64,000 bases of DNA from Candidatus Fervidifonticultor sextus (lineage in GTDB: Bacteria; Sysuimicrobiota; Sysuimicrobiia; Sysuimicrobiales; Humicultoraceae): positions 1 to 64,000 of the forward strand of contig JAVKHQ010000012.1 in the NCBI GenBank assembly GCA_031459875.1, read 5' to 3'. Within the stretch, counting starts at the first letter, position 1. Each line of letters begins with the position of its first letter. The position numbers and the translations under genes were made by a program. A model generated the notes under the pieces. It did not search any database. It worked only from the letters and a program-made list of their open reading frames with translations, and was not told where the DNA came from. Below are positions 29,534 to 59,826 of this stretch, piece after piece.

Positions 29534-29539
29534 GGCGCC

Positions 29540-29818: not shown

Positions 29819-30035
29819 ACGGGCGCGCTATGCCGCCGCCGTCTTTGTCCTGGCGGGCATCGGGGCGGCCTGCGCGGTGGTCATCGTCCTCGGCGAGATC
29901 CTGGGGGGCCCGCAGCGGCCCTGGTTCTGGCAGGCCGGCGGCGCGGCGCTGGGCCTGATCTTCGTGGTCTACGGCCTGATCCTGCTGTTGCTGCGGAAGA
30001 TGGGGCTGGTCGGCCCGCGGCGGGCCGAGCGCTAG
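29808..30035 (+). CDS. Small 2-TM membrane protein
   Basis: Overlaps previous ORF; two hydrophobic segments. Confidence 0.65.
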   Translation: MGAERARYAAAVFVLAGIGAACAVVIVLGEILGGPQRPWFWQAGGAALGLIFVVYGLILLLLRKMGLVGPRRAER

Positions 30036-30046
30036 GGGGGGGCGGC

Positions 30047-37115: not shown

Positions 37116-37311
37116 GCGCTGGGACAGCGCGCGCAGCCACGTGCGCACCCGCCTCAGGGTTGCACCTCGGGAGCGATGGATCGGAGCATCAGGTCAACCG
37201 GACGCAGGATGCCGGATGGGGGATTTCCCTGCCTCCAGGCCAAACCCTGCCGGCCTGCCCGCACCCCGGGCGCCCGACGCTGCGCGGTGCCGCCTGGGAT
37301 CGCCTAGGGTC

Positions 37312-39867
37312 ATGGAGCGCCTCGTCCCCGTCTTCTTTGTCTACGGGCTCGCCTTCTTCGCCATGGGGCTGGCCATCGCGCTGGAAGCCCGCCGCGCCAG
37401 CGCGTTGGTGCTCTCCCGCCCGCTCCGCTACCTGGCAGTGTTCGGCCTGCTGCACGCCGCGGTGGAGTGGATCGACATGTGGATGATCGGGCCGGCTGTC
37501 GGGGCCGCCTCGCCGGCGCTTCGCATCCTCCGCCTGGCCCTGTTTGCCGGCTCCACGGTGGCGCTGGCCCAGTTCGGGGCCGACGTGATCGCCTCGACCG
37601 GGCGCCATCTCGCGGCGATCCGCTGGCTGCCGCTGCTGCTGGCCGTGTTCTGGACGCTGAACTGGGCGGTGATCCCGCACCTGGCGCCGGTGCCGGCCGG
37701 GGAGGTCCCCCGGACTCCGTCCTGCCTGCAGTGCCACGCCGCCGCGCTGCCTCCCGGGTCGGGTGCCTCCACTGCCCCGCTGGCGCCGGCCACCGTGCTG
37801 GCGGACGTCTGGTTGCGCTACCTGATCTACCTGCCGGGCTCGCTGCTGGCGGCGGCTGCCTTCTGGATGGTGGGACGCCGCCTGGCCGGGGAGGACTACC
37901 CCCAGATCGCGCAGGACTGCCGGTGGACGGCGATGGCCTTTGCGGCCAACGCCATGATGGCCGGCCTCGTCGTGCCGCCCGCGGCCTTTTTCCCGGCCTC
38001 GGTGTTGAACTACGACCGGTTCTTCGCCGCAGTCGGCGTGCCGCCGCAACTCTTCCGCGCGGGCATTGCGGTGCTCATCGCCGCGCTGGTGTTGCGGGTC
38101 CTGCGGGTCTTCGAACAGGAGGCCTCCCGGCGCCTGGCCGCCGCCACCGAGGCGAGGCTTGCCGCGCAGCAGCAGGCGCTGGAGGCGGTCGAGGCGGCGC
38201 GGGAGGCCGCAGAGCACTGGAACCGGACCCTGGAAGAGCGCGTGGCTGCCCGGACGCAGGAACTGGAGCGCCGCACGCGGGAGCTGGCCGCCCTCAACGC
38301 CATCGCGTCCACCGTGACGGGGTCGCTCGACCTGCAGGCCATCCTCGAAGCCACCGTGGACCGCCTGCTCGACCTCGTGGGCGCCGACGGAGGCGGGATC
38401 GTGCTCCGCCCGTCTTCGCCCGGCGGGCAGGCCTACCGGGTGTTCAGGGGGCCGGCCGCCGTCGAAGCCGAGCGCCTTGGCGGGTTCGAGCCCGGCGCCG
38501 TGGCCTCGGGCGTGATCGTCTTCCCGGAAGGGGGGGCGGGCCGGCCCTTCCTGCGGGTGCCGCTGCGCGCCAAGGACCGGCTGCTCGGCGAACTCGTGAT
38601 CCTGGGACCGCCCGGCACCCAGTACGGCGATGGGGAGGTCGCCCTGCTGACCACGGTGGCCCAGCAGGTGGGTGTCGCGGTGGAGAACGCCCGGCTCTTC
38701 CACGAGACGGCGGCGCGCCGCCGCGAAGCCGAAACCCTCTACCGCCTGGGGGTTGAGATTACCGCGCTCTCGGACGTGAACCGCGTCCTGGACCTGGTGA
38801 CCTCCAGCGCCCGCGACCTGCTGGCCGCAGACGTGGCCATGCTCAGCCTGGTGGATGCCGCCGGCCGGGTGGTGGTCCTCCGCGCGGCCAGCGGGCTGCG
38901 TGCCGACGCGCTCGCAGGCGTCGAACTGGCGCTCGGCCAGGGGCTGGCCGGTCAGGTCGTCCTCACCGGCCAGCCCCTTGTCGTGGCTGACTACCTGACC
39001 GAGGCCCGGATCTCCCGTGAGGACCCCATGGTGCGGCAGGAGGGCCTGCGGACCCACGTGGGCGTCCCGATCTCCGCCCGCGGGCGCGCGATCGGCTGCC
39101 TGGCGGTGGCGTACCGCCGCCGGCAGCCCGTGACCGACGACGACGTGCACCTGCTGAGCCGGATGGCCAATCAGGCGGCCATCGCCATCGAGAATGCCCG
39201 CCTCTATGAGCAGGTGCAGAGCCTCGCCATCCTGGAAGAGCGGGACCGCCTGGGCCGCGAAATGCACGACAGCCTCGGACAGAGCCTGGGGTTGTTGAAC
39301 CTCAAGGTCAAGCTCGTCGAGGACCTGGTGAGCGCCGGTCGGACGCACGAGGCCCAGGAGGAACTGGCCCAGATCCGTCAGACGATCCGCGAGGCCTATG
39401 ACGAAGTCCGGCACGCCATCATGGGCCTGCGGACCTCCGGGGCCCGCGAGGACCTGGAAGTCGCCCTCCGCGTGCAGGTGGCGCGGTTCCGCGAGCAGGC
39501 CAGACTCCCCGTCGTCTACGAGGTGGCCGGTCCCATCCCCACGGTACCAGCCCTGGCCGCGGTGCAGATCACGCGCATCGTGCAGGAGGCGCTGACCAAC
39601 GTCCGGAAGCACGCAGAGGCGAAGGCCGTGCGGGTCACGCTGGGCGTGGAGGACAGCCGTCTGGCGGTGCGCATCGTCGACGACGGCCGCGGGTTCGACG
39701 TCGAGGCCACCCAGCAGGCCCCTGGCGCCCGGTTCGGCCTGGAGACCATGCGGGAGCGCGCCGAGAGCATCGGGGGCACGCTGACCGTCACGTCCGCACC
39801 CGGGGCCGGGACGACGGTGGCGCTCTCGGTGCCGGTGCCGGAGCCGGCATCGCCCCCCCGCTCCTAG
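37312..39867 (+). CDS. 7-TM sensor histidine kinase with loop CxxCH, two GAF domains and HisKA_3
   Basis: VYGLAFF N-terminus, CLQCH, ERDRLGREMHDSLGQ, DDGRGF. Confidence 0.92.
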   Translation: MERLVPVFFVYGLAFFAMGLAIALEARRASALVLSRPLRYLAVFGLLHAAVEWIDMWMIGPAVGAASPALRILRLALFAGSTVALAQFGADVIASTGRHLAAIRWLPLLLAVFWTLNWAVIPHLAPVPAGEVPRTPSCLQCHAAALPPGSGASTAPLAPATVLADVWLRYLIYLPGSLLAAAAFWMVGRRLAGEDYPQIAQDCRWTAMAFAANAMMAGLVVPPAAFFPASVLNYDRFFAAVGVPPQLFRAGIAVLIAALVLRVLRVFEQEASRRLAAATEARLAAQQQALEAVEAAREAAEHWNRTLEERVAARTQELERRTRELAALNAIASTVTGSLDLQAILEATVDRLLDLVGADGGGIVLRPSSPGGQAYRVFRGPAAVEAERLGGFEPGAVASGVIVFPEGGAGRPFLRVPLRAKDRLLGELVILGPPGTQYGDGEVALLTTVAQQVGVAVENARLFHETAARRREAETLYRLGVEITALSDVNRVLDLVTSSARDLLAADVAMLSLVDAAGRVVVLRAASGLRADALAGVELALGQGLAGQVVLTGQPLVVADYLTEARISREDPMVRQEGLRTHVGVPISARGRAIGCLAVAYRRRQPVTDDDVHLLSRMANQAAIAIENARLYEQVQSLAILEERDRLGREMHDSLGQSLGLLNLKVKLVEDLVSAGRTHEAQEELAQIRQTIREAYDEVRHAIMGLRTSGAREDLEVALRVQVARFREQARLPVVYEVAGPIPTVPALAAVQITRIVQEALTNVRKHAEAKAVRVTLGVEDSRLAVRIVDDGRGFDVEATQQAPGARFGLETMRERAESIGGTLTVTSAPGAGTTVALSVPVPEPASPPRS

Positions 39868-39881: not shown

Positions 39882-40592
39882 ATGGAGAAGATCCGGGTCC
39901 TGCTCGCCGACGACCATGCGCTGTTCCGGCGCGGGCTGGCCAGCCTGCTGGCGAACCGCGACGACCTCGAGGTGGTGGGGGAGGCCTCAAGCGGTGAGGA
40001 AGCCATCGACCGTGCCCGGGAACTGATGCCCGACGTCATCCTGATGGACGTCCGGATGCCGGGGGAGGGCGGCCTGGAGGCCACGCGCCGCATCAAGGAG
40101 GAGATGCCCTACGTCAGGATCGTCATCCTGACGGTCTCCGAGGATGAGGAAGACCTCTTCGCCGCCATCAAACACGGAGCGCAGGGCTACCTGCTCAAGA
40201 ACATCGACCCCGACGACCTGATCGCCTGCATCCACCAGGTCCAGCGCGGGGAGGCGCCGCTGGCCCCGGCCATGGCGACCAAGATCCTCCGCGAGTTCAG
40301 CGCGGCCGCCCCCCGCCCCGGGCCGACCCTGACCCCCAGGGAGCGCCAGGTGCTCGAGCTCGTCGCCAGGGGCGATGCCAACAAGGAGATCGCCCGGGCC
40401 CTCCAGATCTCCGAGAACACGGTCAAGAACCACCTGCGCAACATCCTCGAGAAACTCCACCTCCAGAACCGGGTGCAGGCGGTCATGTACGCGCTGCGGG
40501 AAGGCCTGATCTCCCCGCCGGGCGGCGGCCGGCACGAGGGCCGCGACCCCGAAGATCCCCCATCTAGTCAGGACGGACGAGGCAGGACCTAG
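39882..40592 (+). CDS. NarL-family response regulator
   Basis: ADDH, MDVRMP, LTPRERQVL..TVKNHL. Confidence 0.95.
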   Translation: MEKIRVLLADDHALFRRGLASLLANRDDLEVVGEASSGEEAIDRARELMPDVILMDVRMPGEGGLEATRRIKEEMPYVRIVILTVSEDEEDLFAAIKHGAQGYLLKNIDPDDLIACIHQVQRGEAPLAPAMATKILREFSAAAPRPGPTLTPRERQVLELVARGDANKEIARALQISENTVKNHLRNILEKLHLQNRVQAVMYALREGLISPPGGGRHEGRDPEDPPSSQDGRGRT

Positions 40593-40734
40593 CCGCCCCG
40601 GACCACGGCGGCCGCTCCGGCACCACCCGGAGGGGGCATCCGGGGATGCCTCGATGTTCCTCTGCCCGATCGCCCCAACCAGCGATTGGCCCGGCGCGGG
40701 CCCACCCCTACCCTGAAGTCAGGAGAGATCGGCG

Positions 40735-41085
40735 ATGCGCTGCCGGGTCCTGATCTGGTCTGCACGGTCCGTCTTCGTGAAGGCGATGCGCAGCCTGGCG
40801 GCCCGCGAAGGGCTGGAGGTCCTCGCCGTCGCCAGGACGCCCGAAGCGGCGCTGGCATGCGCGCGGATGCACCGGCCGGATGCGGTGCTGGTGGATCGGG
40901 AGACCGAGGAACGCCATCCGGACGGGGTGGTGCACCTGATGACCGAGGGCGCCCCGACCAAGGTCGTGGCGGTGGACCTGCTGGGCGAGTCGGCCATCGT
41001 GCTCGAGGGCCGGTGGGCTCCGGCGGTGACGGTTCGAGACCTGCTCCAGGTGATCGAGGGGGGCCTGGCATCCCAGGCCGCATGA
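40735..41085 (+). CDS. Degenerate stand-alone receiver-domain protein
   Basis: RVLIW..EVLAVA..EAAL..RPDAVLVD pattern; AGGAG RBS. Confidence 0.65.
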   Translation: MRCRVLIWSARSVFVKAMRSLAAREGLEVLAVARTPEAALACARMHRPDAVLVDRETEERHPDGVVHLMTEGAPTKVVAVDLLGESAIVLEGRWAPAVTVRDLLQVIEGGLASQAA

Positions 41086-41099
41086 AGGGAGGGACCACC

Positions 41100-41306
41100 A
41101 TGCACCCGATCGGCATCGCGCTGGCGTTCCTGGTGTTCTGGTCGTTTGCGGCTGTCGGCGTGTTCCTGCTGGCATCCGGCGGCCGGCGACTCCGCCAGGC
41201 CCGCAACGCGTTCTGGGCGCTGGTCAGCGGCGCCGTCATGCTGCTGGGGGTGGCGCTCACGGGCGCGGGTGTCTACGCGACGTTTGTCGTCCTCTACGGT
41301 CGGTAG
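41100..41306 (+). CDS. Small 2-TM membrane protein
   Basis: GGGAGGG RBS; two hydrophobic helices. Confidence 0.7.
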   Translation: MHPIGIALAFLVFWSFAAVGVFLLASGGRRLRQARNAFWALVSGAVMLLGVALTGAGVYATFVVLYGR

Positions 41307-41406
41307 CATCCCGGCGCGTCTGCGGCCGCAGCATCCGGCCTGCGCGTGACGGAGCCACGGGAGCACCGGACAGGCGTGCGCCTGCCGCCCCGTGGCTTTC
41401 GTGTTG

Positions 41407-41415
41407 TGCTATCCT
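41407..41415 (+). promoter_or_regulatory. Extended -10 element
   Basis: TGcTATCCT about 31 nt upstream of the heptaheme gene. Confidence 0.4.
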
Positions 41416-41446
41416 AGGGGCAATGCCGGTCGTCGAGGGGGCCTGA

Positions 41447-42337
41447 GTGCACTGGCTCATCCTGATCGTTGCCGCGGCATGGCTCTTCGCATCACCGATA
41501 CCCGCTCTGGCCCAGGACAACGCAGCCTGCCTTGCCTGCCATCAGGTTGAGGGGACGAAGGTCACGTTCCCCGGGGGCGGCGAACTCGACGTCACCATCA
41601 ACCCCGACAAGTTCGCGGCATCGGTCCACGCCTCGTTCACCTGCACCACCTGCCACACCCGGCACGCGGACTACCCCCATCCGCCCAGGACCGCCAACAC
41701 CGCGCGGGCGTACCGCGTGACGGCCCAGGAGATCTGCGCGGGCTGTCACGCCGATCAGCAGCGGGACTTCGACGGGGGCGTCCACGGCGGGGGCGTGCGG
41801 ATGGGCCTGGGTGATGTCCCCCTGTGCACGACCTGCCACACCGCGCATGCGGTGATCAAGCCCAAGAGCGCCGCCTTCCGCAACAGCATCCCCGAAGTGT
41901 GCGGCAACTGCCATGCCGACGAGGCCGTCATGCGGCGCTACGGGCTGCGCCCGGTCTACCAGGCGTACCTGGAGGAGTTCCACGGGGTCACGACCCGGCT
42001 CTACCGCATTGTGACCCCGCTGAGCCCGTCGCCGGCCGCAGTCTGTTACGACTGTCACACGGCGCACCGCGTCCTGCGCGTGGCCAACCCCCTGTCCCCG
42101 GTGGCCCCGGGGAACCTCCTGGCCACCTGCCGCCAGTGCCATACCACGGCCGGTCGCTTCTTCGCCACCGCCTGGACCGAGCATCGTGCGCCCAGCCTCC
42201 AGTATGCTCCGCTGGTCTACCTGGTGCAGGTCTTCTACCTGATCCTGATCCCCGCCGTGGTGGGCGTGCTGGCGCTGCTGACGGTGCTGGACCTGTGGCA
42301 CTGGGCCGTGACCAGGTGGGGAGGGGGCGGCGCGTGA
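41447..42337 (+). CDS. Heptaheme cytochrome c with C-terminal TM
   Basis: Signal peptide, 7 CxxCH. Confidence 0.92.
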   Translation: MHWLILIVAAAWLFASPIPALAQDNAACLACHQVEGTKVTFPGGGELDVTINPDKFAASVHASFTCTTCHTRHADYPHPPRTANTARAYRVTAQEICAGCHADQQRDFDGGVHGGGVRMGLGDVPLCTTCHTAHAVIKPKSAAFRNSIPEVCGNCHADEAVMRRYGLRPVYQAYLEEFHGVTTRLYRIVTPLSPSPAAVCYDCHTAHRVLRVANPLSPVAPGNLLATCRQCHTTAGRFFATAWTEHRAPSLQYAPLVYLVQVFYLILIPAVVGVLALLTVLDLWHWAVTRWGGGGA

Positions 42338-43083
42338 GGCGCTACCGCGGCCCCTACGTGGAGCGGTTCTCGCTGGCGCAGCGCATCGAGCACTTCGTCC
42401 TCCTGCTGACCTTCAACGTGCTGGCCCTCACCGGCCTGCCCCAAAAGTACGCCACCACAGGGTGGGGGGAGCGCCTGATCGCCGCCATGGGCGGCATCGA
42501 CCAGACCCGGTTCATCCACCGGACCACTGCCGTCATCCTGATGGCCCTCGGAGTCTGGCACCTGGCCAGCGTCCTCGTGACCCGGAAGCGGCGCCTCCGC
42601 GCGCACGATATGAACCTGACCCTCAAGGACCTCCGGGACCTGCTGGCCGACATCCGGTACCTGGCCGGCCTCTCCCGCCAGCGCCCCGCCTTCGGTCGGT
42701 TCGACTACCGCCAGAAGTTCGAGTACTGGGCGGTCCTGTGGGGGACGATCATCATGGCCGCCACCGGTCTGGTCATGTGGTTCCCGGCCCTGGTCTCGCG
42801 CTGGCTGCCCGGCGTGGTCATCCCGGCGTCCCGGGTCGCCCACGGCGGGGAGGCGCTGCTGGCGCTGTTTGCCGTGATCATCTGGCACTTCTACAACGCT
42901 CACTTCCGGCCGGACATCTTCCCCATGGACCCGGCGATGTTCACCGGGAAGATCCCGCTGGAGCGGGCCGAGCGCGAACACCCGCGGGAAGTGGAGGAAC
43001 TGCGGCATCTGGGCGTCCTCCCGCCGGCGTCGGAGCCTGCGACGCCGTCTGGAGGCGATACCACGCCCTCCTCATCCAACTAG
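42334..43083 (+). CDS. Di-heme cytochrome b (FdnI/CbcL-type)
   Basis: RFSLAQRIEH, IHR, FDYRQKFEYW, AH..IIWHFY. Confidence 0.9.
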   Translation: MRRYRGPYVERFSLAQRIEHFVLLLTFNVLALTGLPQKYATTGWGERLIAAMGGIDQTRFIHRTTAVILMALGVWHLASVLVTRKRRLRAHDMNLTLKDLRDLLADIRYLAGLSRQRPAFGRFDYRQKFEYWAVLWGTIIMAATGLVMWFPALVSRWLPGVVIPASRVAHGGEALLALFAVIIWHFYNAHFRPDIFPMDPAMFTGKIPLERAEREHPREVEELRHLGVLPPASEPATPSGGDTTPSSSN

Positions 43084-43245
43084 CCTGCATCGCACCGCGG
43101 CCGGTCAGGTCTTCGCCCGATGCCTCCGCTGGGTAAATACCGCATCCGCCGTATGGTCGCAGACTGCGGCGCTCCCTAGGATGGTCCTGACTTTGGCATG
43201 TCGGGGATGTGCGCGGGCTTAAGCCAGCGCACCGGGAGGATGAGC

Positions 43246-44208
43246 ATGGGAAGCAGATCCGCACCGGGACTCCCGGCGAAGCCAGCGATACGGCGCCGGG
43301 AGCTGTTGCGGCGCGGGGCGGCGGTTGCGGCCGCGGTGGGCGGCGGCGGGGCCCTCGCGGAGGTCCTGACGCGGCGGCGCACCGAGGCCCACCCGGCGGT
43401 GCCGGCGGCGATCCGCGACCCCAGGCCCGGTGAGCACCCGCTCGTCCGCATGCAGCGGGAGCTGCACCGGGCTCTGGCCAAGCCGATTGAGCGGCGCCAG
43501 TGGGTGATGGTGGTCGACACCAGGCGCTGTATCGGCTGTGACGCCTGCACGGTGGCCTGTATCGCCGAACACGGACTGCCGCCGGGCGTCTCCTACCGGA
43601 CGGTCGTGAAGGTGGAGGCCGGCGCGTTCCCCCACGTCGAGGCCTTCTTCAAACCGACCAACTGCATGCAGTGCGACAAGCCGCCCTGCCTGCCGGCGGC
43701 CAACGCCGTCAGCCCCGGTGCCATGGCCAAACGGCCGGACGGGATCGTCACGGTGGACTACGCGAAGTTCCACCGAAAGGCCTACGAGGCCGCCCGCAAG
43801 GCCTGCCCCTACAACGCGCTCTCCTTTGACGAGGGTCGCTACTGGACCCAGGGCACCCCAGCGCTGCAGGCCTACGAGACGCGCCCGAAAGTCGAGTACG
43901 GAAGGGTCTGGACCCGCTTGAACGGTGCCTTGCCCATTGGCGCGGGCCGGAAGTGCCACTTCTGCCTGCAGCGGATCGAGGCCGGGTTGCTGCCGGCGTG
44001 TGTGGCGACGTGTATCGGCGGCGCCCTGTACTTCGGCGACGCCGGCGACCCCGACAGCCTGGTCTCCGAACTGCGGCGCCAGGAGAAGGCCTGGCGCGTC
44101 AACGAGAGCCTGGGCACCGAGCCGCGCATGTACTACCTCGGCGCGGCCTCGCGCAAGACGATGCCGGCTACCACGCCCGAGTCGTGCCAGGCCTGTCACG
44201 GACGGTAG
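43246..44208 (+). CDS. TtrB/DmsB-like Fe-S subunit (3 predicted clusters, C-terminal CxxCH)
   Basis: Tat RRRELL; CIGCDACTVAC, CMQCDKPPC, ACPY, KCHFC..PACVATC; CQACH. Confidence 0.9.
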   Translation: MGSRSAPGLPAKPAIRRRELLRRGAAVAAAVGGGGALAEVLTRRRTEAHPAVPAAIRDPRPGEHPLVRMQRELHRALAKPIERRQWVMVVDTRRCIGCDACTVACIAEHGLPPGVSYRTVVKVEAGAFPHVEAFFKPTNCMQCDKPPCLPAANAVSPGAMAKRPDGIVTVDYAKFHRKAYEAARKACPYNALSFDEGRYWTQGTPALQAYETRPKVEYGRVWTRLNGALPIGAGRKCHFCLQRIEAGLLPACVATCIGGALYFGDAGDPDSLVSELRRQEKAWRVNESLGTEPRMYYLGAASRKTMPATTPESCQACHGR

Positions 44209-44220
44209 AGGAGGAGCGCC

Positions 44221-47200
44221 ATGGCCAGGAAGATGCCCGCGCACACCACCCGTCGCAGGCTGCTGGCCTCCGCCGCCCTCCTGGGCGGGGCGGCGGCCTA
44301 CGGCCAGATCGCAAAGGTGCTGAGCACGCCGGCCCTGGCGGAAGCGGCCGAGGCCGGGGCGCCCTACCCGTATGGGAAGCCCGAGAACACACTCTACACG
44401 GTCTGCCTCCAGTGCAACACCGGCTGCGGCATCAAGGTGTACCTGGAGCGCGGCGTGGCCGTCAAGATCGAGGGCAACCCCCTCAGCCCCTGGACGATGG
44501 CCCCGCACCTGCCGTACCGGACGCCGGTCGCCGACCTCGCGGCGGTGAATGGCGCGATCTGTCCGAAAGGGCAGGCCGGCCTCCAGACCGTCTACGATCC
44601 CTACCGGATCCGCACGGTGCTCAAGCGGGCGGGTCCGCGTGGGTCGAACAAGTGGAAGAGCATCCCGTTCGAGCAGGCCATCAGCGAGATCGTCAACGGC
44701 GGCCGGCTCTTCGCAGAGATCCCCGGCGAGGAGCACCGCGTCGTGGAAGGGTTCAAGGATGTCTACGCCCTGCGCGATCCCGCGCTAGCCCGCGCCATGG
44801 CCACCGACGTCGCCCTGGTGAAGAGCAAGCGGATGACGGTCGAGCAGTTCAAGGCGAAGTACCGGGCCCATCTGCACGTCCTCATCGACCCCGATCACCC
44901 CGACCTGGGTCCCAAGAACAACCAGTTCGTCTACTGGAAGGGCCGCGAGAAGGGCGGCCGGGGGGACTTCGTTACCCGCTTTGCCGGCGACGCCTTCGGC
45001 ACCGTCAACCGCCACGGCCACACCACCGTCTGCCAGGGCTCCCTGTACTTCACCGGCAAGGCCATGAGCGACCAGTACGTGGGCGGCACGTGGACCGGCG
45101 GCCGGAAGTTCTACTGGCAGGCGGATACCGAGCATGCCGAGTTCATCATCTTCGTCGGCGCCAACCCCCTGGAAGCCAACTACGGGCCGCCGCTGCGCGC
45201 CGGGAAACTGACCGGGGGGATCGTCAGCGGGCGCCTCAAGATCGCGGTGGTGGATCCGCGATTCTCGCGGTCAGCCAGCAAGGCCTGGAAGTGGATCCCC
45301 AACAAGCCGGGGACCGAGGCCGCCGTCGCCATGGCCATGATCCGGTGGATCGTCGAGCACCAGCGGTTCGACGCCAGGTATCTGGCCAACGCCAACCGGG
45401 CTGCGGCGGCCGCCGACGGCGAGCCGACCTGGAGCAACGCCTCCTGGCTGGTGAAGATCGAAGACCACCAGCCCGGGAAGTTCCTGCGAGCGGCGGAGAT
45501 CGGCCTCTCCGACCGCGACCTGTTCGTGGTCCTCAAGGACGGCACACCCGTCGCCGTGGACCCCTACGATACCCGGACGCCGGTCGAGGGCGACCTCCTC
45601 GTGGACACCGTGGTGGGCGGGTTCCGGGTGAAGAGCGCGCTGCAGGTGCTCTACGACGAGGCGCGCAAGCGCTCCATCGCCGGGTGGGCGGCGCTGGCAG
45701 GGGTGTCGGCCGACGACCTAATTGAGGTGGCCAGGGAGTTCACCAGTCACGGCAAACGGGCCGCGGTGGACCTCCACCGGGGGTGCAGCCAGCACACGAA
45801 CGGCTTCTACAACTGCTTCACCTGGTACGCCTTGAACACGCTGATCGGCAACTACGACTGGAAGGGCGGCTCGGCCTGGGCGAGCGCCTACGACCAGGCT
45901 GGCGGTCGGCCCGGCGCACCGTTCAACGTGCGGGCGATGCACCCCGGGCGCACGACCGCCTTTGGGACCCCCTTGATCCGCAACGAGGAGAAGTACGAGG
46001 ACTCCACGCTGTTCTCGGGTTACCCGGCCCGGCGCCAGTGGTATCCCATGGCCAGCGACATCTACCAGGAACTGCTGCCGTCGGCCGCCGAAGGGTACCC
46101 CTACCCGATCAAGATCCTGCTGCTCTACATGGGCTCCCCTGCCTACGCGCTCCCGGCCGGGCACACCAACATCGAGCTGCTGGCCGATCCCACCAAGATC
46201 CCCCTGGTGATCGCCTGCGACATCCTGATCGGCACCACCTCCATGTACGCCGACTACATCTTCCCCGACCTCACCTACCTGGAGCGGTGGGAGTTCCACG
46301 GGACCCACCCCAGCGTGCTGCCCAAGGTCCAGCCAATCTACAGCCCGGTGATCGCGCCGCTGACCACGTCGGTGCGGGTGTACGGGGAGGAGGTGCCCGC
46401 TTCGTTCGAGGCCCTGATGCTGGCCATCGCCGAGAGACTGGGACTGCCGGGGTTTGGGCCCGACGGGTTCGGCCCGGGGCAGCCATTGACCCGTCCCGAC
46501 GACTTCTACATCCGCCTGGTCGCCAACGTGGCGTTTGGCGACCGCGCCGGCGACGAGGTCCCCGACGCCTCCCCCGAGGAGGAACGCCTGTTCCTGGCCG
46601 CCCGGGCCCATCTGCCCAAGTCGGTCTTCGACCCCGAGCGGTGGCGGGCAATCCTGGGCGAGCGGTGGTGGAAGAAGCTCGTCTTCGTGCTCAACCGCGG
46701 AGGACGGTTCGCGGACTACGACTCGGCCTTCGACGGCGAGAGGCTCCGCGGACACTACGGGAACCTGGTGAACCTCTACCTGGAGAAACTGGCGACCACG
46801 AAGCACGCGCTGACCGGTCGATCCTTCTCGGGCGCTCCGGGCTACCACCCGGTCGCGGACAGCCTGGGCCGGCCGATTCGGGACGAGGCCGCGGGCTACG
46901 ACCTGCACCTCATCACCAACCGGATCATCCTCCACACCAAGAGCCGGACGATCACGAACTACTGGCTCACCGGCATCCTGCCGGAGAACGACATCGTGAT
47001 GCACCCGAGGGACGCCCGGGCCCGCAACCTGAAGGACGGGGATCGGGTGCGCATCGTTTCGGCGACCAACCCCCGAGGCGAGTGGGACCTGAAGAACGGC
47101 CAGCGCATTCCCATGGTCGGCCGTCTGAAGGTCTCAGAGGGCATCAGGCCGGGCGTCATCGCCTTCCCCCTGGGATACGGGCACTGGGCCACGGGCGCCG

Positions 47201-47373
47201 TCGATGTCATGGTCGACGGCCGCCGCATCCGGGGCGATCCGCGGCGCCGAACCGGCATCCACGCCAACGCGGCCTTCCGGACCGACCCCCAGTTCCCCAA
47301 CACCTGTCTGACCGACATGGTCGGCGCGAGCGCCGTCTTCTACGACACGAAGGTCAAGGTGGTCCCGGCATGA
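44221..47373 (+). CDS. Mo/W-bis-PGD oxidoreductase catalytic subunit, TtrA/SrdA-like
   Basis: Tat TRRRLL; CLQCNTGC..CPKG; GHTTVCQG; ADYIFPD..YLERW; GYGHW. Confidence 0.9.
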   Translation: MARKMPAHTTRRRLLASAALLGGAAAYGQIAKVLSTPALAEAAEAGAPYPYGKPENTLYTVCLQCNTGCGIKVYLERGVAVKIEGNPLSPWTMAPHLPYRTPVADLAAVNGAICPKGQAGLQTVYDPYRIRTVLKRAGPRGSNKWKSIPFEQAISEIVNGGRLFAEIPGEEHRVVEGFKDVYALRDPALARAMATDVALVKSKRMTVEQFKAKYRAHLHVLIDPDHPDLGPKNNQFVYWKGREKGGRGDFVTRFAGDAFGTVNRHGHTTVCQGSLYFTGKAMSDQYVGGTWTGGRKFYWQADTEHAEFIIFVGANPLEANYGPPLRAGKLTGGIVSGRLKIAVVDPRFSRSASKAWKWIPNKPGTEAAVAMAMIRWIVEHQRFDARYLANANRAAAAADGEPTWSNASWLVKIEDHQPGKFLRAAEIGLSDRDLFVVLKDGTPVAVDPYDTRTPVEGDLLVDTVVGGFRVKSALQVLYDEARKRSIAGWAALAGVSADDLIEVAREFTSHGKRAAVDLHRGCSQHTNGFYNCFTWYALNTLIGNYDWKGGSAWASAYDQAGGRPGAPFNVRAMHPGRTTAFGTPLIRNEEKYEDSTLFSGYPARRQWYPMASDIYQELLPSAAEGYPYPIKILLLYMGSPAYALPAGHTNIELLADPTKIPLVIACDILIGTTSMYADYIFPDLTYLERWEFHGTHPSVLPKVQPIYSPVIAPLTTSVRVYGEEVPASFEALMLAIAERLGLPGFGPDGFGPGQPLTRPDDFYIRLVANVAFGDRAGDEVPDASPEEERLFLAARAHLPKSVFDPERWRAILGERWWKKLVFVLNRGGRFADYDSAFDGERLRGHYGNLVNLYLEKLATTKHALTGRSFSGAPGYHPVADSLGRPIRDEAAGYDLHLITNRIILHTKSRTITNYWLTGILPENDIVMHPRDARARNLKDGDRVRIVSATNPRGEWDLKNGQRIPMVGRLKVSEGIRPGVIAFPLGYGHWATGAVDVMVDGRRIRGDPRRRTGIHANAAFRTDPQFPNTCLTDMVGASAVFYDTKVKVVPA

Positions 47374-47450: not shown

Positions 47451-47897
47451 GTGGCGAGACCGCCCCTGCGGGTCACCCGACGATCACTGGCCGACTACCT
47501 AATTGGCACCGGCCTGGCGGGCCTGGCCGGAACGATCCTCTACCCGCTCGTCCGCTACCTGATCCCGCCCAAGGTCAGGGAGGTCTCGGCAGGTAGCATC
47601 GTGGCCGCCAAGGTCGCCGAGGTCGCGCCCAATTCCGGCAAGGTGTTCCTGTTCGGGGGCAAGCCCGCCATCCTGGTGCGGACGCCGGAGGGGACCTTCA
47701 AGGCCTTCAGCGCCGTCTGCACGCACCTGGCCTGCACGGTCCAGTACCGGCCGGAGATCGGGCACATCTGGTGCGCCTGCCACGACGGCCACTACGACCT
47801 CAACGGGCAGGTGCTGGCCGGACCGCCGCCGCGTCCGCTGCCCGAGTTCAGCGTGACGGTCAGGGGGGATGACGTGATCGTGACCCGGCCGGCGTGA
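47451..47897 (+). CDS. Rieske protein of Rieske/cyt b complex 2
   Basis: TRR Tat motif; CTHLAC...CACHDGHY; GPPPRPL. Confidence 0.93.
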   Translation: MARPPLRVTRRSLADYLIGTGLAGLAGTILYPLVRYLIPPKVREVSAGSIVAAKVAEVAPNSGKVFLFGGKPAILVRTPEGTFKAFSAVCTHLACTVQYRPEIGHIWCACHDGHYDLNGQVLAGPPPRPLPEFSVTVRGDDVIVTRPA

Positions 47898-48955
47898 GGC
47901 CCATGGGATTGGGCGCCTGGCTCGAAGACCGCCTCCGCTGGCGCGCCGCCGACCAGTTCCTCCGCCACAAGCGCGTGCCCCTGGTCCGGCACGGATACGT
48001 CTACTACTTCGGCGGGATTACCCTCTTCCTGTTCCTCATCCAGGTCGTCACCGGCCTCCTGCTGTTGATGTACTACCGGCCCACGGCAGACGCCGCCTAC
48101 GAGAGCGTCCGCTTCATCATGGCCAGGGTCCAGTTCGGGTGGCTGGTGCGCTCGGTCCATTCCTGGGCGGCCAACCTCATGGTGTTCTGGGTCTTCGCCC
48201 ACCTGTTCGGAGCCTTTTTCCTGCGGGCGTATCGCCGTCCCCGGGAACTCACCTGGATCTCGGGCGGCCTGTTGCTGTTCGTCACGCTGGCCTTCGGGTT
48301 CACCGGCTACCTGCTGCCCTGGAACATGCTGGCCTACTTCGCCACCAAGGTCGGGACCGAGATCGTCGGGGCCGTGCCCCTGGTCGGCGGCCCGCTGCTG
48401 GTGCTGCTGCGCGGCGGCGAGGACGTTACCGAGGCGACGCTCAGCCGCTTCTTCGGCATCCACGTGGCCATCCTGCCGGCGCTGACCACGCTGCTGCTCG
48501 GCCTCCACCTGTTCCTGGTGCAGTTGCACGGGATGAGCCACCCCGGGGCCCGGCCGCCGGGCCGCGCGCTGCCGTTCATCCCGCACGTCGTCCTGCGGGA
48601 GGCAATGATCTGGCTGGGGATGACGGCCCTCCTGGCCGTGCTGGCGGTGCTGCTCCCCTGGCCGGCGGGCGAGAAGGCCGATCCGCTGGCGCCGGCGCCC
48701 GCCGGCATCAAGCCCGAGTGGTACTTCGTGTTCATGTTCCAGACGCTCAAGCTGATCCCGTCCCACGTGCTGGGGCTGGAAGGTGAGCAGGCGGGCATCG
48801 TGGCCTTCGTGCTGGGCGCGGCGGTGCTGCTGGCCGTGCCGTTCCTCGATCGCGGAGAGGAGCCCACCCGGGCGACGCGGATCGTGCGGGCGGCGGGCGT
48901 GGCGGCCGTGCTCTACATCGTCGGGATGACCGCATACGGCTACCTGGCACCGTAG
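47894..48955 (+). CDS. Cytochrome b (canonical, 4 His, PEWY)
   Basis: RSVH..AH, GIH..LH, KPEWYF. Confidence 0.94.
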   Translation: MRPMGLGAWLEDRLRWRAADQFLRHKRVPLVRHGYVYYFGGITLFLFLIQVVTGLLLLMYYRPTADAAYESVRFIMARVQFGWLVRSVHSWAANLMVFWVFAHLFGAFFLRAYRRPRELTWISGGLLLFVTLAFGFTGYLLPWNMLAYFATKVGTEIVGAVPLVGGPLLVLLRGGEDVTEATLSRFFGIHVAILPALTTLLLGLHLFLVQLHGMSHPGARPPGRALPFIPHVVLREAMIWLGMTALLAVLAVLLPWPAGEKADPLAPAPAGIKPEWYFVFMFQTLKLIPSHVLGLEGEQAGIVAFVLGAAVLLAVPFLDRGEEPTRATRIVRAAGVAAVLYIVGMTAYGYLAP

Positions 48956-48962: not shown

Positions 48963-50252
48963 ATGGTCGGTCGGGTGCGGTGGGCAGTCCTGATCGGCGC
49001 GGCGGCGTGGCTGTGGCTGGCACCGCCCGGGCGCACCGCCGCGGCACCGGCTCCCCCGCCGCCGCCAGCCGCCCCTGCCGACAGTTGCACCGGCTGCCAC
49101 CGCACCCTCGGAGGCCGCCTGGCTGCCCCGACGCAGGCCATCGCCGATGACATCCACGTGCGGCGGGGCTTCTCGTGTGCCGCCTGCCACGGAGGCGATC
49201 CGCAGGCGCCGGGCATGGAGGCCATGGATCCCAGGAAGGGCTTCGTGGGCAAGCCCGGGCGCCAGCGGCTCCCGGCGCTGTGCGGGCGCTGCCATGCCGA
49301 TCCGGCCTTCATGCGCCGGTACAATCCCGCCACCCCCACCGACGAGGTCGCCCGCTTCCTCACCAGCGTCCACGGCCAGAGGCTGGTGAAGGGCGACGTG
49401 AAGGTCGCCACCTGTACGAGCTGTCACGGCGTGCATCCCATCCTGGCCGTCGCCGACAGCCGATCCCCGGTCTTCCCGTCCAATGTGCCCGGCACGTGCG
49501 CGCGCTGCCACGCCGACGCGCGGTACATGCAGCCCTACGGGATTCCCATCACGCAGTATGCGGAGTATCAGGCCAGCGTGCACGGCGAGGCGCTGCTGCA
49601 GCGCGGGAGCAAACAGGCGCCGGCCTGCAACGACTGCCACGGCAATCACGGCGCGGTGCCACCCGGGGTCGAGTCGGTGGCCAACGTGTGCGCCCAGTGC
49701 CACGCCTCCCAGCGCGACCTGTTCGTCCGCAGCCCGCACCGGGTGCCCTTCGAGGGTATGGGACTGGCTCAGTGCACGGCCTGCCACGGTACCCACAAGA
49801 TCCTCCGGCCCACCGACGAGATGGTCGGGGCCGCCCCTCCGGCAGTGTGCGCCCAGTGTCACGCCCCCGGCAGCAAGGGCGCCGCCGCCGCCACCGCCAT
49901 CCGGTCGGCGCTGGAGGACCTGAAGCAGGCCCTGCAGGCCGCCACCCAGGTGGTGGCCCTCGCCGAGCACGCGGGCATGGACATGACCGACGCCAAACTC
50001 CCGCTCAATGACGCCCAGACGCAGCTCATCCTGGCGCGCAACCTGGTGCACAGCCTCTCCCTGCGCGAGGTGCAGTCGGCCGCCACCGAGGGCGTGGGGC
50101 TCGCGCGCCGCGCTGCCGACCTGGGCCTGGCCGCCCTGGATGAGATCGCGTTCCGGCGGCGGGGCCTCGTGGTGGCGCTCGTGGTGATCGCGGTGCTCGT
50201 GCTGGGGCTCTACCTCAAGAGCAGGACGCTGGGAGTCCCGGGCAATTCGTAG
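48963..50252 (+). CDS. Nonaheme cytochrome c with coiled-coil and C-terminal TM
   Basis: Signal peptide, 9 CxxCH. Confidence 0.92.
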   Translation: MVGRVRWAVLIGAAAWLWLAPPGRTAAAPAPPPPPAAPADSCTGCHRTLGGRLAAPTQAIADDIHVRRGFSCAACHGGDPQAPGMEAMDPRKGFVGKPGRQRLPALCGRCHADPAFMRRYNPATPTDEVARFLTSVHGQRLVKGDVKVATCTSCHGVHPILAVADSRSPVFPSNVPGTCARCHADARYMQPYGIPITQYAEYQASVHGEALLQRGSKQAPACNDCHGNHGAVPPGVESVANVCAQCHASQRDLFVRSPHRVPFEGMGLAQCTACHGTHKILRPTDEMVGAAPPAVCAQCHAPGSKGAAAATAIRSALEDLKQALQAATQVVALAEHAGMDMTDAKLPLNDAQTQLILARNLVHSLSLREVQSAATEGVGLARRAADLGLAALDEIAFRRRGLVVALVVIAVLVLGLYLKSRTLGVPGNS

Positions 50253-50323: not shown

Positions 50324-51463
50324 CTACTTCAGCGCGTCCAGCGTCGTGAGGATCACCTGGCGGACGAACCGGGGGTTGTGGACCCCGAAACTGCCGTCGC
50401 CCTCCACCAGCCAGTAGTTCCACCCCGCGCGCACGATCGGATCGCTGGTGGCAAACGTTGGCCGACCGGCGGCGTCCCGGAGTTCCCCGAGCTGGGTTGT
50501 GATCCTCCGCCCGGTGGACAGATGCAACACCACGCCCTGTTGGCCGGCGACCTCGGTCAACTCGATCCGGGCGATGGTGACCGGGTCAATCGTCACAGTT
50601 TCGGTAAACGCGTACACCTTGGCATCCCACGCCCGCGCCGCCCGGATCCGGTCCCGGCTGGCGAGAATCTTGCCCGTGATGACCTCCTCCAATTCATGGA
50701 TCAGCGTCTTGGTCGGGCCCTGGACGCGGGCCGTCGTCATCTCACGGCCGTGGCAGCGGCTGCAGACCATCGGGTCCGCCTTGAAGGTGTGGGGCTCCTT
50801 GCTCATGCGCACGTGGCACGTCACGCAGGAATCCCCGATGAACGACGCATGGGGCGAGATGAAGTTGTTGCCGTAGTCGAGGAAGTAGACGTTCTTGCCC
50901 ATGATGACGTCGCCCTGGGAGGATGTGTGGGGGGCGGTGTACCGGCGTGGATCCTCCTGGTTCCAGACGATGGCGCCGTTGCGCGAGTTGTGGCAGAGCA
51001 TGCACTGAGCGCCCAGGCCCACCCCGATGGCGCGGAAGCCGGCCGGGAGCAGCGGGGTGCTGCCCGCCTGACGGAGGGTGAAGTCGGCCTGGTGGCAGGT
51101 CGTGCAGGTGATGGGCCGCACGCTGAACCGGCTCAGCCCGATCCCGACCAGATAGGGCACGTCGGCGGCGGACCCATCGGGTTTGGCGATCAGGCCGGGG
51201 TTCCCCCGCTGCATCTGCGGCAGCCAGGCCAGGAAGCCCTGCTCGGCATGGCACCGGCCGCAGTGGGCGGCGACCGGCCCGCGGCGGCCGTCGGCCGTCG
51301 CTTCCAGGGTGGGGCGGAGGCGGTTCGCGTGCTTTGACTTCGCCCACTGGGCGCGCTGGTCGGCCTGGGCCCGGACCGCCGCCACGCCCACGCCGAAGAG
51401 GACAACAGCGGCAAGTGCGACCACCCAGAAGGAGGTAAGTGCACGGCCCCAGCGCACGAGCAT
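50324..51463 (-). CDS. Pentaheme cytochrome c
   Basis: 5 CxxCH; C-terminal DGSFGVHNP motif; start uncertain. Confidence 0.88.
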   Translation of the reverse strand: MLVRWGRALTSFWVVALAAVVLFGVGVAAVRAQADQRAQWAKSKHANRLRPTLEATADGRRGPVAAHCGRCHAEQGFLAWLPQMQRGNPGLIAKPDGSAADVPYLVGIGLSRFSVRPITCTTCHQADFTLRQAGSTPLLPAGFRAIGVGLGAQCMLCHNSRNGAIVWNQEDPRRYTAPHTSSQGDVIMGKNVYFLDYGNNFISPHASFIGDSCVTCHVRMSKEPHTFKADPMVCSRCHGREMTTARVQGPTKTLIHELEEVITGKILASRDRIRAARAWDAKVYAFTETVTIDPVTIARIELTEVAGQQGVVLHLSTGRRITTQLGELRDAAGRPTFATSDPIVRAGWNYWLVEGDGSFGVHNPRFVRQVILTTLDALK

Positions 51464-51641
51464 CACCCTCGGGTCCCGTCGCTCCCCTGTCGGCGGGCGA
51501 TTTTTGATGAGTATGTTTCGTGGAACCAGGGGCACTTCCTGCTGGCGCGCTCCCTGGTTACGCGTCGGCTCACGAGCACGTCGGCGGCCGACGGGCCAAG
51601 CGCCCGCGGCCGCCGTGGGGCGCGCCGTGCTGTGCGGCCCC

Positions 51642-52760
51642 CTACTTGCCCAGACTGTGGATCCCTCTGACGTTGGCCGCCGCCCAGGCCTTGGTCCGAT
51701 CTGAGTGACAGCGCAGGCAGACGAACTCCAGCGTGTTCGCGGGGCTGCCCACCGCGCGCCCGTCGGGCGTGAACAGGCTGGCGTCGGGGTCAGTGTTGAT
51801 CTTGAACAGGTGGCTGGGGTCGTCGGCCTCCCACCGGCTCCTCGCCACCGCGTTGGGCCCCGTGTTCGGCATGTGGCAGCTCGTGCACGCTAGGCGTGCG
51901 AGTTGATGCTTGCTGCCCCGGAAGGCCGCCGCGTTGCCGGTGTGGCAGTTCTCGCACGTGCCGGTGGCCTTGACCTGGCGGGCGCGTCGGTGCGGGTCGT
52001 GGCAGGTCACGCAGGAGAGCCCCGCCCGGTTGTGCGGGCTGGCGAGGAATTCCTGATACTGCTCCCGGTGTTGGACCCAACCGCCGGCTGCGGGGATCAC
52101 GCTCATGTCGGTGCCGCGCCGGTGGCACTGGCCGCACAGCGACGCGCTGCGCTCGAGGCGGATGTTGGCCTTCGACGGATTCGACGCGTGCACCTGACCC
52201 CGCCCGTGACACGCCTCGCACTGGACGCCGTTGAGCGCCCAGGTGCCGATCAGCCCTGGCCTGCGGAGCTGGTTGCCGATGGGCACATACCCGGTGGTGT
52301 GGCATTCCCCGCAGTCGTAGGGCAGCCTGCGGCCGGGTTCATAGTTGACCCACTGGGCGGTCTCGAGGTTGAACTGGTTGCGACCCGAAATCTTCCCGTC
52401 CGGACTGCCGGTCAGGATGAAGCCGTCCTGCCCCACGTAGCGGGCCTTCCAGCGGAAGCCGCCGATCACGAAGAGGACGTCGTCCCAGGAGACGTAGTCG
52501 GGCTTGGGTAATCCGGCCGCCCGTGCCTCGGCAGCGGTCCGCAGCTTGGCCGGGTGGCCCGTGGTGCGGAAGGTGTCGTAGATCGGCCGGTGGCAGGTGG
52601 CGCAGGTTTCGGAGCCCACGTACCCGGCCCCGAAGAATCCGGTCGGGCGGGGCGCCGCAGACGGCCCCCGCGGGCCTGCCACGAGCAGCACCCCGAAGGC
52701 GAGGGTGCCGAACACGAGGGCGGTCAGGATGCAGACCACGCATGAACCGACCCTCCCCAT
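51642..52760 (-). CDS. Octaheme cytochrome c
   Basis: 8 CxxCH starting YVGSETCATCH; N-terminal hydrophobic segment. Confidence 0.9.
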   Translation of the reverse strand: MGRVGSCVVCILTALVFGTLAFGVLLVAGPRGPSAAPRPTGFFGAGYVGSETCATCHRPIYDTFRTTGHPAKLRTAAEARAAGLPKPDYVSWDDVLFVIGGFRWKARYVGQDGFILTGSPDGKISGRNQFNLETAQWVNYEPGRRLPYDCGECHTTGYVPIGNQLRRPGLIGTWALNGVQCEACHGRGQVHASNPSKANIRLERSASLCGQCHRRGTDMSVIPAAGGWVQHREQYQEFLASPHNRAGLSCVTCHDPHRRARQVKATGTCENCHTGNAAAFRGSKHQLARLACTSCHMPNTGPNAVARSRWEADDPSHLFKINTDPDASLFTPDGRAVGSPANTLEFVCLRCHSDRTKAWAAANVRGIHSLGK

Positions 52761-53495: not shown

Positions 53496-54266
53496 ATGAA
53501 GGTGGCGATTTCCGGGAAGGGCGGCGTGGGCAAGACCACGGTCGCGGCCCTGCTGGCTGCCGAGCTGGTCCGCCGGGGGTACCGCGTCACCGCCGTCGAC
53601 GCCGATCCGAACCCTACCCTGGCGGCCGCCCTCGGCTTTCCGCCCGTGCCCGTGATTCCCCTGCTCGAGATGAAAGACGAGATCGAGCAGCGCGTCGGCG
53701 GTGCCGACGGCTTCATCCGGCTCAACCCCCAGGTGGACGACCTGGTCACCCGCGCGGCGGTGACCCACGGCGGGATCCAGCTGATCGTCGCCGGCGCCAT
53801 CACCCGCGGCGGCGGGGGGTGCGCGTGTCCCCAGAGCGTGCTGCTGCGCCGGCTCCTGGAGCACCTCGTGCTGGAGCGCGACGAGGCGGTGGTGATCGAC
53901 CTGGAGGCGGGCCTGGAGCACCTCGGCCGGCGCAGCGCACAGGCTTCCGATGCGCTCCTGGTCGTGGTGGATCCCAGCCGCGCGAGCCTGGAGACCGCCG
54001 GGCGCATCCGCCGCCTGGCGTCGGAGATCGGCATCACGCAGGTGCTGGCGGTCGCCAACCGGGTCAGGGGAGCCGGCGATGCGCTGTACGTCGCCGCCCA
54101 CCTCGACGGCCTCGACCTGATCGCCTCGATTCCCTACAGCGAAGGCCTCGCGGACGCCGAGCGGCAGGGCGGGGAGGCTGCCGGCGTCGATCCGGCGGTG
54201 GCGGAGGCGGTCAGGCGGCTGGCCGATGCACTGACAACGCGGACGAGAGGGAGGGTCAGGCCATGA
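53496..54266 (+). CDS. cooC: CODH nickel-insertion ATPase
   Basis: GKGGVGKT, GCAC, DLEAGLEHLGR. Confidence 0.92.
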   Translation: MKVAISGKGGVGKTTVAALLAAELVRRGYRVTAVDADPNPTLAAALGFPPVPVIPLLEMKDEIEQRVGGADGFIRLNPQVDDLVTRAAVTHGGIQLIVAGAITRGGGGCACPQSVLLRRLLEHLVLERDEAVVIDLEAGLEHLGRRSAQASDALLVVVDPSRASLETAGRIRRLASEIGITQVLAVANRVRGAGDALYVAAHLDGLDLIASIPYSEGLADAERQGGEAAGVDPAVAEAVRRLADALTTRTRGRVRP

Positions 54267-56233: not shown

Positions 56234-56254
56234 GGACGGCAGGAGGTATCGGCC

Positions 56255-58441: not shown

Positions 58442-58457
58442 AGACGGGAGGCGCCCG

Positions 58458-59813: not shown

Positions 59814-59826
59814 GGGGGGAGGGGTG

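Follow-up and report, generated by a model that had tools for sequence, protein, structure and literature searches.

The usual description of complex iron-sulfur molybdoenzymes is of an invariable set made up of a catalytic A subunit, a B subunit with four iron-sulfur (Fe-S) clusters and a membrane C subunit. The closest described systems to the one reported here are TtrBCA and SrdBCA. Passages of Duval et al. 2008 (PMC2500031) give the Ttr clade a uniform BCA gene order and a twin-arginine translocation (Tat) signal on B. We describe a two-gene relative of these enzymes, at 43246–47373 (+) of a 64,000-nucleotide stretch of DNA from Candidatus Fervidifonticultor sextus (assembly GCA_031459875.1, contig JAVKHQ010000012.1, positions 1 to 64,000; hereafter the window). 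It resembles TtrBCA and SrdBCA in its best NCBIfam matches (TtrA and TtrB), in having the B gene before the A gene, in carrying Tat signals on both subunits and, going by passages of PMC7331816, in the use of cysteine as molybdenum (Mo) ligand. It differs in having no NrfD-type C subunit, in a B subunit with three clusters and a C-terminal CxxCH tail, and in being flanked by cytochrome and Rieske/cytochrome b genes. We propose that the pair encodes a soluble, periplasmic, Tat-exported Mo oxidoreductase of the TtrA/SrdA lineage that is uncoupled from NrfD, and in which a haem on the tail replaces the cluster FS4 and links the enzyme to cytochromes; we consider this moderately probable.

Among the known periplasmic Mo enzymes that are linked to cytochromes or bc-type complexes are NapAB, Shewanella DmsEFAB, haloarchaeal pNar with NarB/NarC (Rieske/cytochrome b) and Thauera SerABC. 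In these, as in our proposal, a Tat-exported catalytic unit trades electrons with haem proteins and has no NrfD or DmsC anchor. As with pNar, Rieske and cytochrome b genes are found in the window cluster, and in the manner of the DmsEFAB group a decahaem cytochrome and a large protein without Pfam match accompany two relatives (loci L111 and L129). The known systems carry haem on a separate Sec-exported subunit, whereas in the window enzyme CxxCH is part of the Fe-S subunit, which is exported by Tat. The fold of that subunit is shared with the beta subunit of pyrogallol-phloroglucinol transhydroxylase (4v4c_B) and with Desulfovibrio FdhB (1h0h_B, 6sdr_B). The transhydroxylase subunit lacks the same four cysteines (group II Cys4 and group III Cys1–3), so an FS4-less version of the fold is known to be viable. 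Neither the transhydroxylase nor Desulfovibrio periplasmic FdhAB has a membrane subunit; FdhAB passes electrons to periplasmic cytochromes c, and the transhydroxylase is cytoplasmic, with clusters that are thought not to turn over. We know of no C-terminal CxxCH tail on transhydroxylase beta or FdhB. A literature search of the main texts of articles turned up no account of a TtrB-like subunit with three clusters and a haem tail; passages of one preprint (10.1101/2020.10.01.322446) report ttrAB without ttrC, for which an assembly gap was suspected. The tailed three-cluster enzyme would represent a new variant of a known enzyme architecture, whose key proposed feature is a covalent haem on a Tat-exported Fe-S subunit.

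The Fe-S subunit is encoded at 43246–44208 (+). In its translation, Cys group I (CIGCDACTVAC) and group IV (CHFCLQRIEAGLLPACVATC) are intact. Group II (CMQCDKPPCLPAAN; 43663–43701, +) retains C156, C159 and C164 and has Ala168 at the position of its fourth Cys, while in group III (YAKFHRKAYEAARKACPY; 43774–43806, +) R193, Y196 and A199 replace Cys and Cys203 is the sole survivor. This leaves 12 cluster cysteines, compared to the 16 of a four-cluster protein. HMMER alignments to PsrB (2vpw_B) and ArrB (6cz7_B) identify the absent ligands as group II Cys4 and group III Cys1–3, and place a 3-residue insertion after group II. The four lost residues correspond to the ligands of FS4, the cluster that faces the membrane anchor in the structures of NarH, DmsB and PsrB. 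The protein ends in PESCQACHGR, in which CQACH (C330–H334; 44185–44199, +), a predicted haem c-binding motif, lies two residues ahead of the stop. An initial annotation made from the letters of the sequence had described the intact groups I and IV, the depleted groups II and III and the terminal CxxCH, and had concluded that all four ligands of one cluster were lost together. The translation and the alignments to PsrB and ArrB bear out this description.

The ATG at 43246 lies six bases past GGGAGG (43234–43239) and agrees better with the closest homologue (318 residues) than does the alternative ATG at 43198. Residue numbers given here follow the version from 43198 (P0001), in which CQACH is 330–334 and the Tat motif is 32–34. 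The latter is the RRR in AIRRRELL (43291–43299, +), and an RRR motif is also present on the Mo subunit. The CxxCH motif is thus part of an exported polypeptide, and the window encodes the System I cytochrome c maturation (Ccm) genes ccmA, ccmB, ccmC, ccmE and ccmF (20739–25516, +; Pfam), as the premise of a Ccm-attached haem in the initial annotation demands. Both features are those of a c-type cytochrome, and the organism encodes many multihaem cytochromes.

The combination of three clusters and a tail is a family trait found across several phyla and no peculiarity of the window protein. In a first set of 121 sequences (the 120 best homologues and the window protein; 47–93% identity, mostly metagenomic), every member is without the same four FS4 ligand cysteines, every member keeps the C-terminal His (His334), and 87 have CxxCH, which chance does not account for. 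Pooling this set with the proteins of 164 fetched loci gave 149 three-cluster and 131 four-cluster sequences; the pooled counts are of sequences, not independent events, and the two sources may share proteins. All 149 three-cluster sequences have lost the FS4 ligands and retain group III Cys4, and 120 of them have an RRx-hydrophobic-hydrophobic motif. Three are cut by contig ends and were excluded. The remaining 146 end in CxxCH (109) or in a Cys-poor xxxxH (37), and none is missing the His, which is followed by a median of one residue. The linker before the tail varies in length (1 to 191 residues, median 13). The commonest Cys-poor tails are IxxFH, VxxYH and SxxVH, four keep the first Cys alone, and the Cys-less tails are well conserved among themselves (DDPxFxAxFH-type).

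Among the fetched loci, 25 of 25 complete three-cluster proteins are tailed (22 with CxxCH, 3 with His only), while neither form of tail occurs in any of the 131 four-cluster TtrB/SrdB-like relatives, whose C-termini stop at a conserved ...GTxPxVYYL. The initial annotation had made its case depend on conservation of the tail and had looked to homologues for covariation; the tail is conserved in the proportions given above and covaries perfectly with loss of FS4. The residues specific to the three-cluster family are only A167, A168, G174, A198, A199 and H334. Some four-cluster relatives are unusually long, with the ferredoxin part C-terminal (P0130, 840 residues; P0126, 423 residues; L048 295–2382, 695 residues), and may be fusions or mis-called starts.

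An AlphaFold2 model calculated with the 121-sequence alignment has a core (residues 70 to 310) with a predicted local confidence (pLDDT) above 90, and this core includes the rebuilt FS4 region. A Foldseek search with the model returned PsrB 2vpw_B (E 1.7e-17, TM 0.87 on target) and ArrB as the best matches; the protein is a Fer4_11-type subunit with the PsrB/ArrB fold. The FS4 region is modelled confidently as two helices (164–171 and 193–202), and the family-specific Ala167, Ala168, Ala198 and Ala199 fit tight helix packing in the former cluster site. In the tail (residues 317–336) pLDDT falls to about 50, and a short helix spans the CxxCH motif. The model suggests a flexible tail that would be reachable by a periplasmic haem lyase. 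A complex prediction of the Fe-S subunit (residues 78–336, with three 4Fe-4S clusters and a haem) with the haem-less heptahaem cytochrome (22–250) scored 0.00 and gives no evidence either way.

Loss of the FS4 ligands goes with the absence of an adjacent NrfD gene. Of the four-cluster loci, 78 had a membrane-protein candidate next to the Fe-S gene (107 candidates in all), and Pfam analysis identified NrfD in 69 of these; an NrfD profile built from 62 Pfam-confirmed sequences matched in 106 of 131 four-cluster loci. Downstream sequence of 1500 nt or more was available for 99 four-cluster loci; in 86 of them NrfD starts directly past the Fe-S stop, in B-C-A order. By comparison, Pfam found no NrfD among 138 neighbour proteins of the 28 three-cluster loci, and the profile matched in one of these loci (L009), after a separate 18-Cys Fe-S gene. 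The same profile has no match in the window at E≤10. The absence of an adjacent TtrC/NrfD gene noted in the initial annotation is therefore confirmed and is typical of three-cluster loci. Nor is a cognate NrfD to be found elsewhere in the genome, an outcome that the annotation had named as fatal to its idea: the two NrfD genes (contigs C15 and C49) each adjoin their own 16-Cys Fe-S gene, leaving no orphan NrfD to serve the window enzyme, and the C15 gene also adjoins the only other related Mo subunit of the genome.

One locus and one group of loci depart from the common arrangements. In L009 the 18-Cys Fe-S and NrfD genes (7289–9421) form an NrfCD-like quinol module immediately upstream of the three-cluster, CxxCH-tailed Fe-S and Mo genes, with a CcmH gene nearby. 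A four-cluster subgroup from Geobacteraceae, Desulfobulbaceae and Myxococcota metagenome-assembled genomes (L042, L047, L054, L071, L074) ends in ...VYYVxNxKLEVLY and has no NrfD in the fetched DNA; it may use yet another coupling.

The trees of the two subunits do not match. For the B tree the trait columns (residues 160–204 and the tail) were removed, which left 153 rows, 26 of them three-cluster, and 183 columns. A single branch separates the three-cluster B subunits from all others, with a Shimodaira-Hasegawa-like approximate likelihood ratio (SH-aLRT) support of 100, and the halves of the protein analysed apart require 2 changes and 1 change. The Cys-less L090 and L093 are basal within the clade. 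A convergent origin of the three-cluster B was considered and is rejected by the B trees. The A subunits were analysed with FastTree (94 rows) and IQ-TREE (58 rows, comprising all 15 three-cluster partners and 43 four-cluster partners chosen as clade representatives). In both trees the A partners of three-cluster B are scattered among four-cluster partners, with 7 changes, at least 6 of which are forced by well-supported branches. The approximately unbiased (AU) test rejects monophyly of these A partners (log-likelihood difference 781.6, p 4.6e-153). Since the A partners need 7 changes, the link with missing NrfD recurs across A lineages. Four groups are common to the A and B trees: window/L085/L006/L086, L116/L111/L129, L096/L097 and L098/L099. 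The simplest reading would be that the tailed three-cluster B arose once and later joined several A lineages, in each case without NrfD.

We propose that B keeps three [4Fe-4S] clusters, FS1–FS3, and that two short Ala-rich helices occupy the FS4 site. A flexible linker of about 15 residues would then lead to the terminal CxxCH. Fe-S clusters would be inserted in the cytoplasm, the folded protein would be exported by Tat, and the exposed, unstructured tail would receive a covalent haem from Ccm in the periplasm. The haem would be the outermost redox centre, in the place of FS4, and would trade electrons with c-type cytochromes. Its electron-transfer partners are likely to be the products of two flanking gene sets, a membrane-anchored heptahaem cytochrome with an FdnI-like cytochrome b on the upstream side and Rieske, cytochrome b and nonahaem proteins on the downstream side, which would join the enzyme to the quinone pool indirectly. 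In this scheme we infer the attachment of haem, the order of maturation, which partners are used and in which direction electrons flow. Two relatives have cytochrome c maturation genes nearby (CcmH in L009, Cytochrom_C_asm in L121). The initial annotation regarded a Tat substrate with haem c as unusual; so it is, although the combination is not unheard of. Passages of PMC4429474 describe split-Soret cytochrome c, which has CxxCH haem sites, as a predicted Tat substrate. The fold of that protein is unrelated and it is not a molybdoenzyme subunit. Split-Soret cytochrome c also holds an Fe-S centre.

Several observations weigh against this proposal. AlphaFold2 does not fix the position of the tail. 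Among three-cluster B subunits no family-specific His or Met other than H334 was found, which leaves no candidate for a sixth haem ligand, and in the A partners of three-cluster B the number of specific columns is zero, so that these provide no distal ligand candidate. Of the 146 complete members, 37 are without one or both tail Cys and keep the His; covalent haem c cannot therefore be the universal role of the tail, and in the Cys-poor members the His might bind haem b or have some other use. Neither PF01578 nor CcmF has a match in the genome of the closest named relative (L006). Multihaem cytochromes are encoded there, which makes an assembly gap the likely cause, and the L006 tail has CxxCH; the genome of the single-Cys L019 has PF01578. 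In 13 of the 99 four-cluster loci no NrfD was found in the fetched DNA, so three-cluster loci are not the only ones to lack an adjacent NrfD. The B alignment is short (183 columns), which makes an artefact in the tree possible.

The genes around the window enzyme require one qualification to the initial annotation and bear on the first of the rival explanations. Upstream lie a heptahaem c-type cytochrome, MHC1 (41447–42337, +; 7 CxxCH; Pfam Paired_CXXCH_1), with a hydrophobic C-terminal stretch (VYLVQVFYLILIPAVVGVLALLTVL), and an FdnI-like di-haem cytochrome b (42334–43083, +; PF01292, E 1.6e-11), a candidate quinone-reactive membrane subunit that scores 61.6 bits against the NCBIfam formate dehydrogenase gamma model (cut-off 115.85). 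Downstream lie a Rieske [2Fe-2S] protein (47451–47897, +; Pfam, NCBIfam), a b6-like cytochrome b whose C-terminal part is subunit IV-like (47894–48955, +) and a nonahaem c-type cytochrome, MHC2 (48963–50252, +; 9 CxxCH, Pfam). Two modules predicted to be quinone-reactive thus flank the enzyme. Of the statement that it has no anchor, the absence of NrfD stands, while the anchored heptahaem/cytochrome b pair and the Rieske/cytochrome b genes do not fit it; on the sequence evidence 'no anchor' should read 'no NrfD'.

This arrangement raises the possibility that the AB dimer sits permanently on a membrane module of MHC1 and the FdnI-like cytochrome b that replaces NrfD, in a four-subunit quinol-linked complex in which the tail, with haem or without, would be the contact. 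The MHC1 and cytochrome b genes are close-knit (the GTG start of the latter overlaps the MHC1 stop by 4 bases) and end about 160 bases ahead of the Fe-S gene; the five-gene order recurs in L085 and L086, where MHC1 is kept at 71–76% identity and the same sensor kinase precedes the operon; and the hydrophobic end of MHC1 is like that of FdnH in formate dehydrogenase-N. We nevertheless think a permanent complex unlikely. Apart from the window, the pair occurs in just 2 of the 28 three-cluster loci (L085 and L086), and L006, the closest named relative, carries only cofactor-synthesis genes (MobA and MoeA/MobB) instead. Other relatives have other redox neighbours: Rieske/cytochrome b in L086 and L098 as in the window, the NrfCD-like pair in L009, a cytochrome c fused to an EB_dh haem domain in L008, and in L111 and L129 an MtrA-like decahaem cytochrome, a protein of about 700 residues without Pfam match and a pentahaem cytochrome. 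Such varied partners fit a soluble enzyme that docks on whichever cytochrome is available, as expected if the cytochromes are interchangeable.

In L111 (11931–16405) and L129 (8598–12561) the genes for the decahaem (MtrA/DmsE-like), the ~700-residue and the pentahaem proteins directly follow the Mo gene. Such a gene arrangement is reminiscent of porin-cytochrome conduits and would orient the enzyme, or its wiring, towards the cell exterior. EB_dh is the domain type of the gamma subunit of ethylbenzene dehydrogenase; EB_dh proteins are found near three-cluster operons in L008 (402–2045) and L086 (15052–16515), one of them fused to a dihaem cytochrome c.

A second rival explanation takes the variation of the tail as its starting point. 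The His is invariant (146/146) and the Cys pair is not (109/146), the Cys-less tails are well conserved in their own right, and Cys-less members stand at the base of the three-cluster clade. The tail could have no covalent haem of its own: the His would help the tail to dock or would be an axial ligand of a partner's haem, or haem b would be bound non-covalently family-wide, with the Cys a later and dispensable addition. Against this, CxxCH stands at the C-terminus in three quarters of the family despite linkers of 1 to 191 residues, and chance or tolerance would not keep both Cys at exact spacing; the organism, moreover, possesses a complete Ccm system together with numerous c-type cytochromes. 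We judge this explanation to be quite unlikely.

A third possibility is that Cys330, Cys333 and His334 ligate a non-haem centre (a small Fe-S cluster, Zn, Cu or Ni) or that the CxxC forms a redox-active disulfide. A CxxC with a neighbouring His can bind metals, compensation for four lost ligands is plausible, and the tail is unmodelled. The motif offers three potential ligands only, however, a quarter of the family keeps the His without the Cys, no further family-specific Cys or His is found in B or A, and the FS4 site is filled by well-predicted helices, all of which make a non-haem centre improbable. A tail without function, whether left over as a neutral relic or produced by annotation, has nothing in its favour except the low AlphaFold2 confidence and is barely credible, as the His is invariant down to about 47% identity in several phyla and the tail covaries perfectly with FS4 loss.

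We return to the haem-tailed, three-cluster enzyme and to a broader version of the proposal. That B forms one clade and its Mo partners do not indicates module exchange, and the mismatch between the trees suggests that redox modules have been swapped among catalytic subunits. It is quite possible, though we would stop short of calling it probable, that a portable module (a three-cluster ferredoxin with a haem c tail) has replaced FS4 and NrfD in several TtrA/SrdA-type lineages. The module would rewire them from the quinone pool to different cytochrome networks (heptahaem/cytochrome b, Rieske/cytochrome b, NrfCD-like or MtrA-like decahaem) and would mature in two compartments, by Fe-S insertion in the cytoplasm, Tat export and haem attachment by Ccm in the periplasm. 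The three-cluster family would then be a conserved alternative to the standard set, in which a haem motif on the Fe-S subunit stands in for the last cluster and the anchor. Should the haem prove real, the family would provide a natural Tat-exported Fe-S protein that is completed by periplasmic Ccm, making the action of Ccm on folded Tat substrates testable. It would also explain the link of these enzymes to multihaem cytochrome networks in uncultured thermophiles and soil bacteria. Annotators would be warned that ttrAB without ttrC in metagenome bins need not mean an assembly gap.

The catalytic subunit (44221–47373, +; 1050 residues, 13 bases after the B gene) is a Tat-signalled Mo/W-bis(pyranopterin guanine dinucleotide) protein of the TtrA/SrdA lineage. 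Its Pfam domains (Molybdopterin, Molydop_binding and the Fe4S4 domain of FS0) place it in the DMSO reductase family. The FS0 motif CLQCNTGC is at residue 62, and all 93 aligned A subunits share the Mo-ligand Cys271. The initial annotation had called the Fe-S subunit TtrB-like. The best NCBIfam matches are indeed TtrA (479.7 bits) and TtrB (123.6), but these scores lie far under the equivalog cut-offs (1750 and 416), and the label is a loose one. ArrA (116.9 against 1600) and ArrB (106.7 against 450) do not reach theirs either; ArrA and PhsA score far below TtrA on the Mo subunit, and no Arx model is among the NCBIfam matches of the window proteins. The Mo subunit is 82% identical to that of L006, 59% identical to the nearest A subunits with four-cluster partners and 47% identical to the A subunit of a B-C-A locus of Mesobacillus selenatarsenatis SF-1, which may be srdBCA.

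Lineage, together with ars genes beside some relatives, makes an arsenic oxyanion, selenate or tetrathionate candidate substrates, and a supply of electrons from the Rieske/cytochrome b would suit a high-potential acceptor. Genes of ars type (ArsR, ArsP, Acr3-type SBF, low-molecular-weight phosphatase, ArsD-like) occur near 5 of 28 three-cluster loci (L006, L097, L099, L100, L124), and ArsP or Acr3-type SBF genes near at least seven four-cluster loci (L040, L059, L061, L062, L145, L161, L164). AioX-like binding domains occur in TtrS too. A trio of periplasmic binding protein, kinase and sigma-54 regulator was considered as an arsenite-specific, AioX-like marker and was discarded: by profile it is present at 5 of 28 three-cluster and 51 of 131 four-cluster loci, and thus offers no clue to the substrate. 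A phosphonate-binding-type periplasmic protein accompanies much of the TtrB/SrdB-like clade (for example L099 10717–11631 and L111 3292–4281), often with a histidine kinase and a sigma-54 response regulator.

The window has a G+C content of 71% and is contig C4 of a 3.05 Mb genome that is 96% complete. Its best protein matches carry Armatimonadota labels, and the closest named relative is Candidatus Fervidifonticultor quintus. The region is present in four DNA sequencing runs from one study of hot-spring metagenomes, with no RNA run among those listed. The operon is preceded by genes for a sensor histidine kinase with GAF, HisKA_3 and HATPase_c domains (37114–39867, +; Pfam) and a NarL/LuxR-type response regulator (39882–40592, +; Pfam Response_reg and GerE). 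The 850-base gap between the regulator and MHC1 (40593–41446) holds solely open reading frames without Pfam match on both strands (40686–41306, +; 40589–41260, −; 40719–41366, −). A divergent decahaem cytochrome (36306–37148, −; 10 CxxCH) is encoded just upstream of the sensor kinase, and two multihaem cytochromes with 5 CxxCH (50324–51535, −) and 8 CxxCH (51642–52760, −) lie downstream of the operon. A second bc-like locus (28379–31204) contains two different cytochrome b genes, one of them fused to a 4Fe-4S dicluster domain. The end of the window (53819–63999) is occupied by a carbon monoxide dehydrogenase (CODH)/acetyl-CoA synthase (ACS) cluster, with Prismane/CODH, ACS beta, CdhD (twice), a RACo activator and an ATPase similar to CooC; the organism probably uses the Wood-Ljungdahl pathway in addition to its cytochrome-rich respiratory chain.

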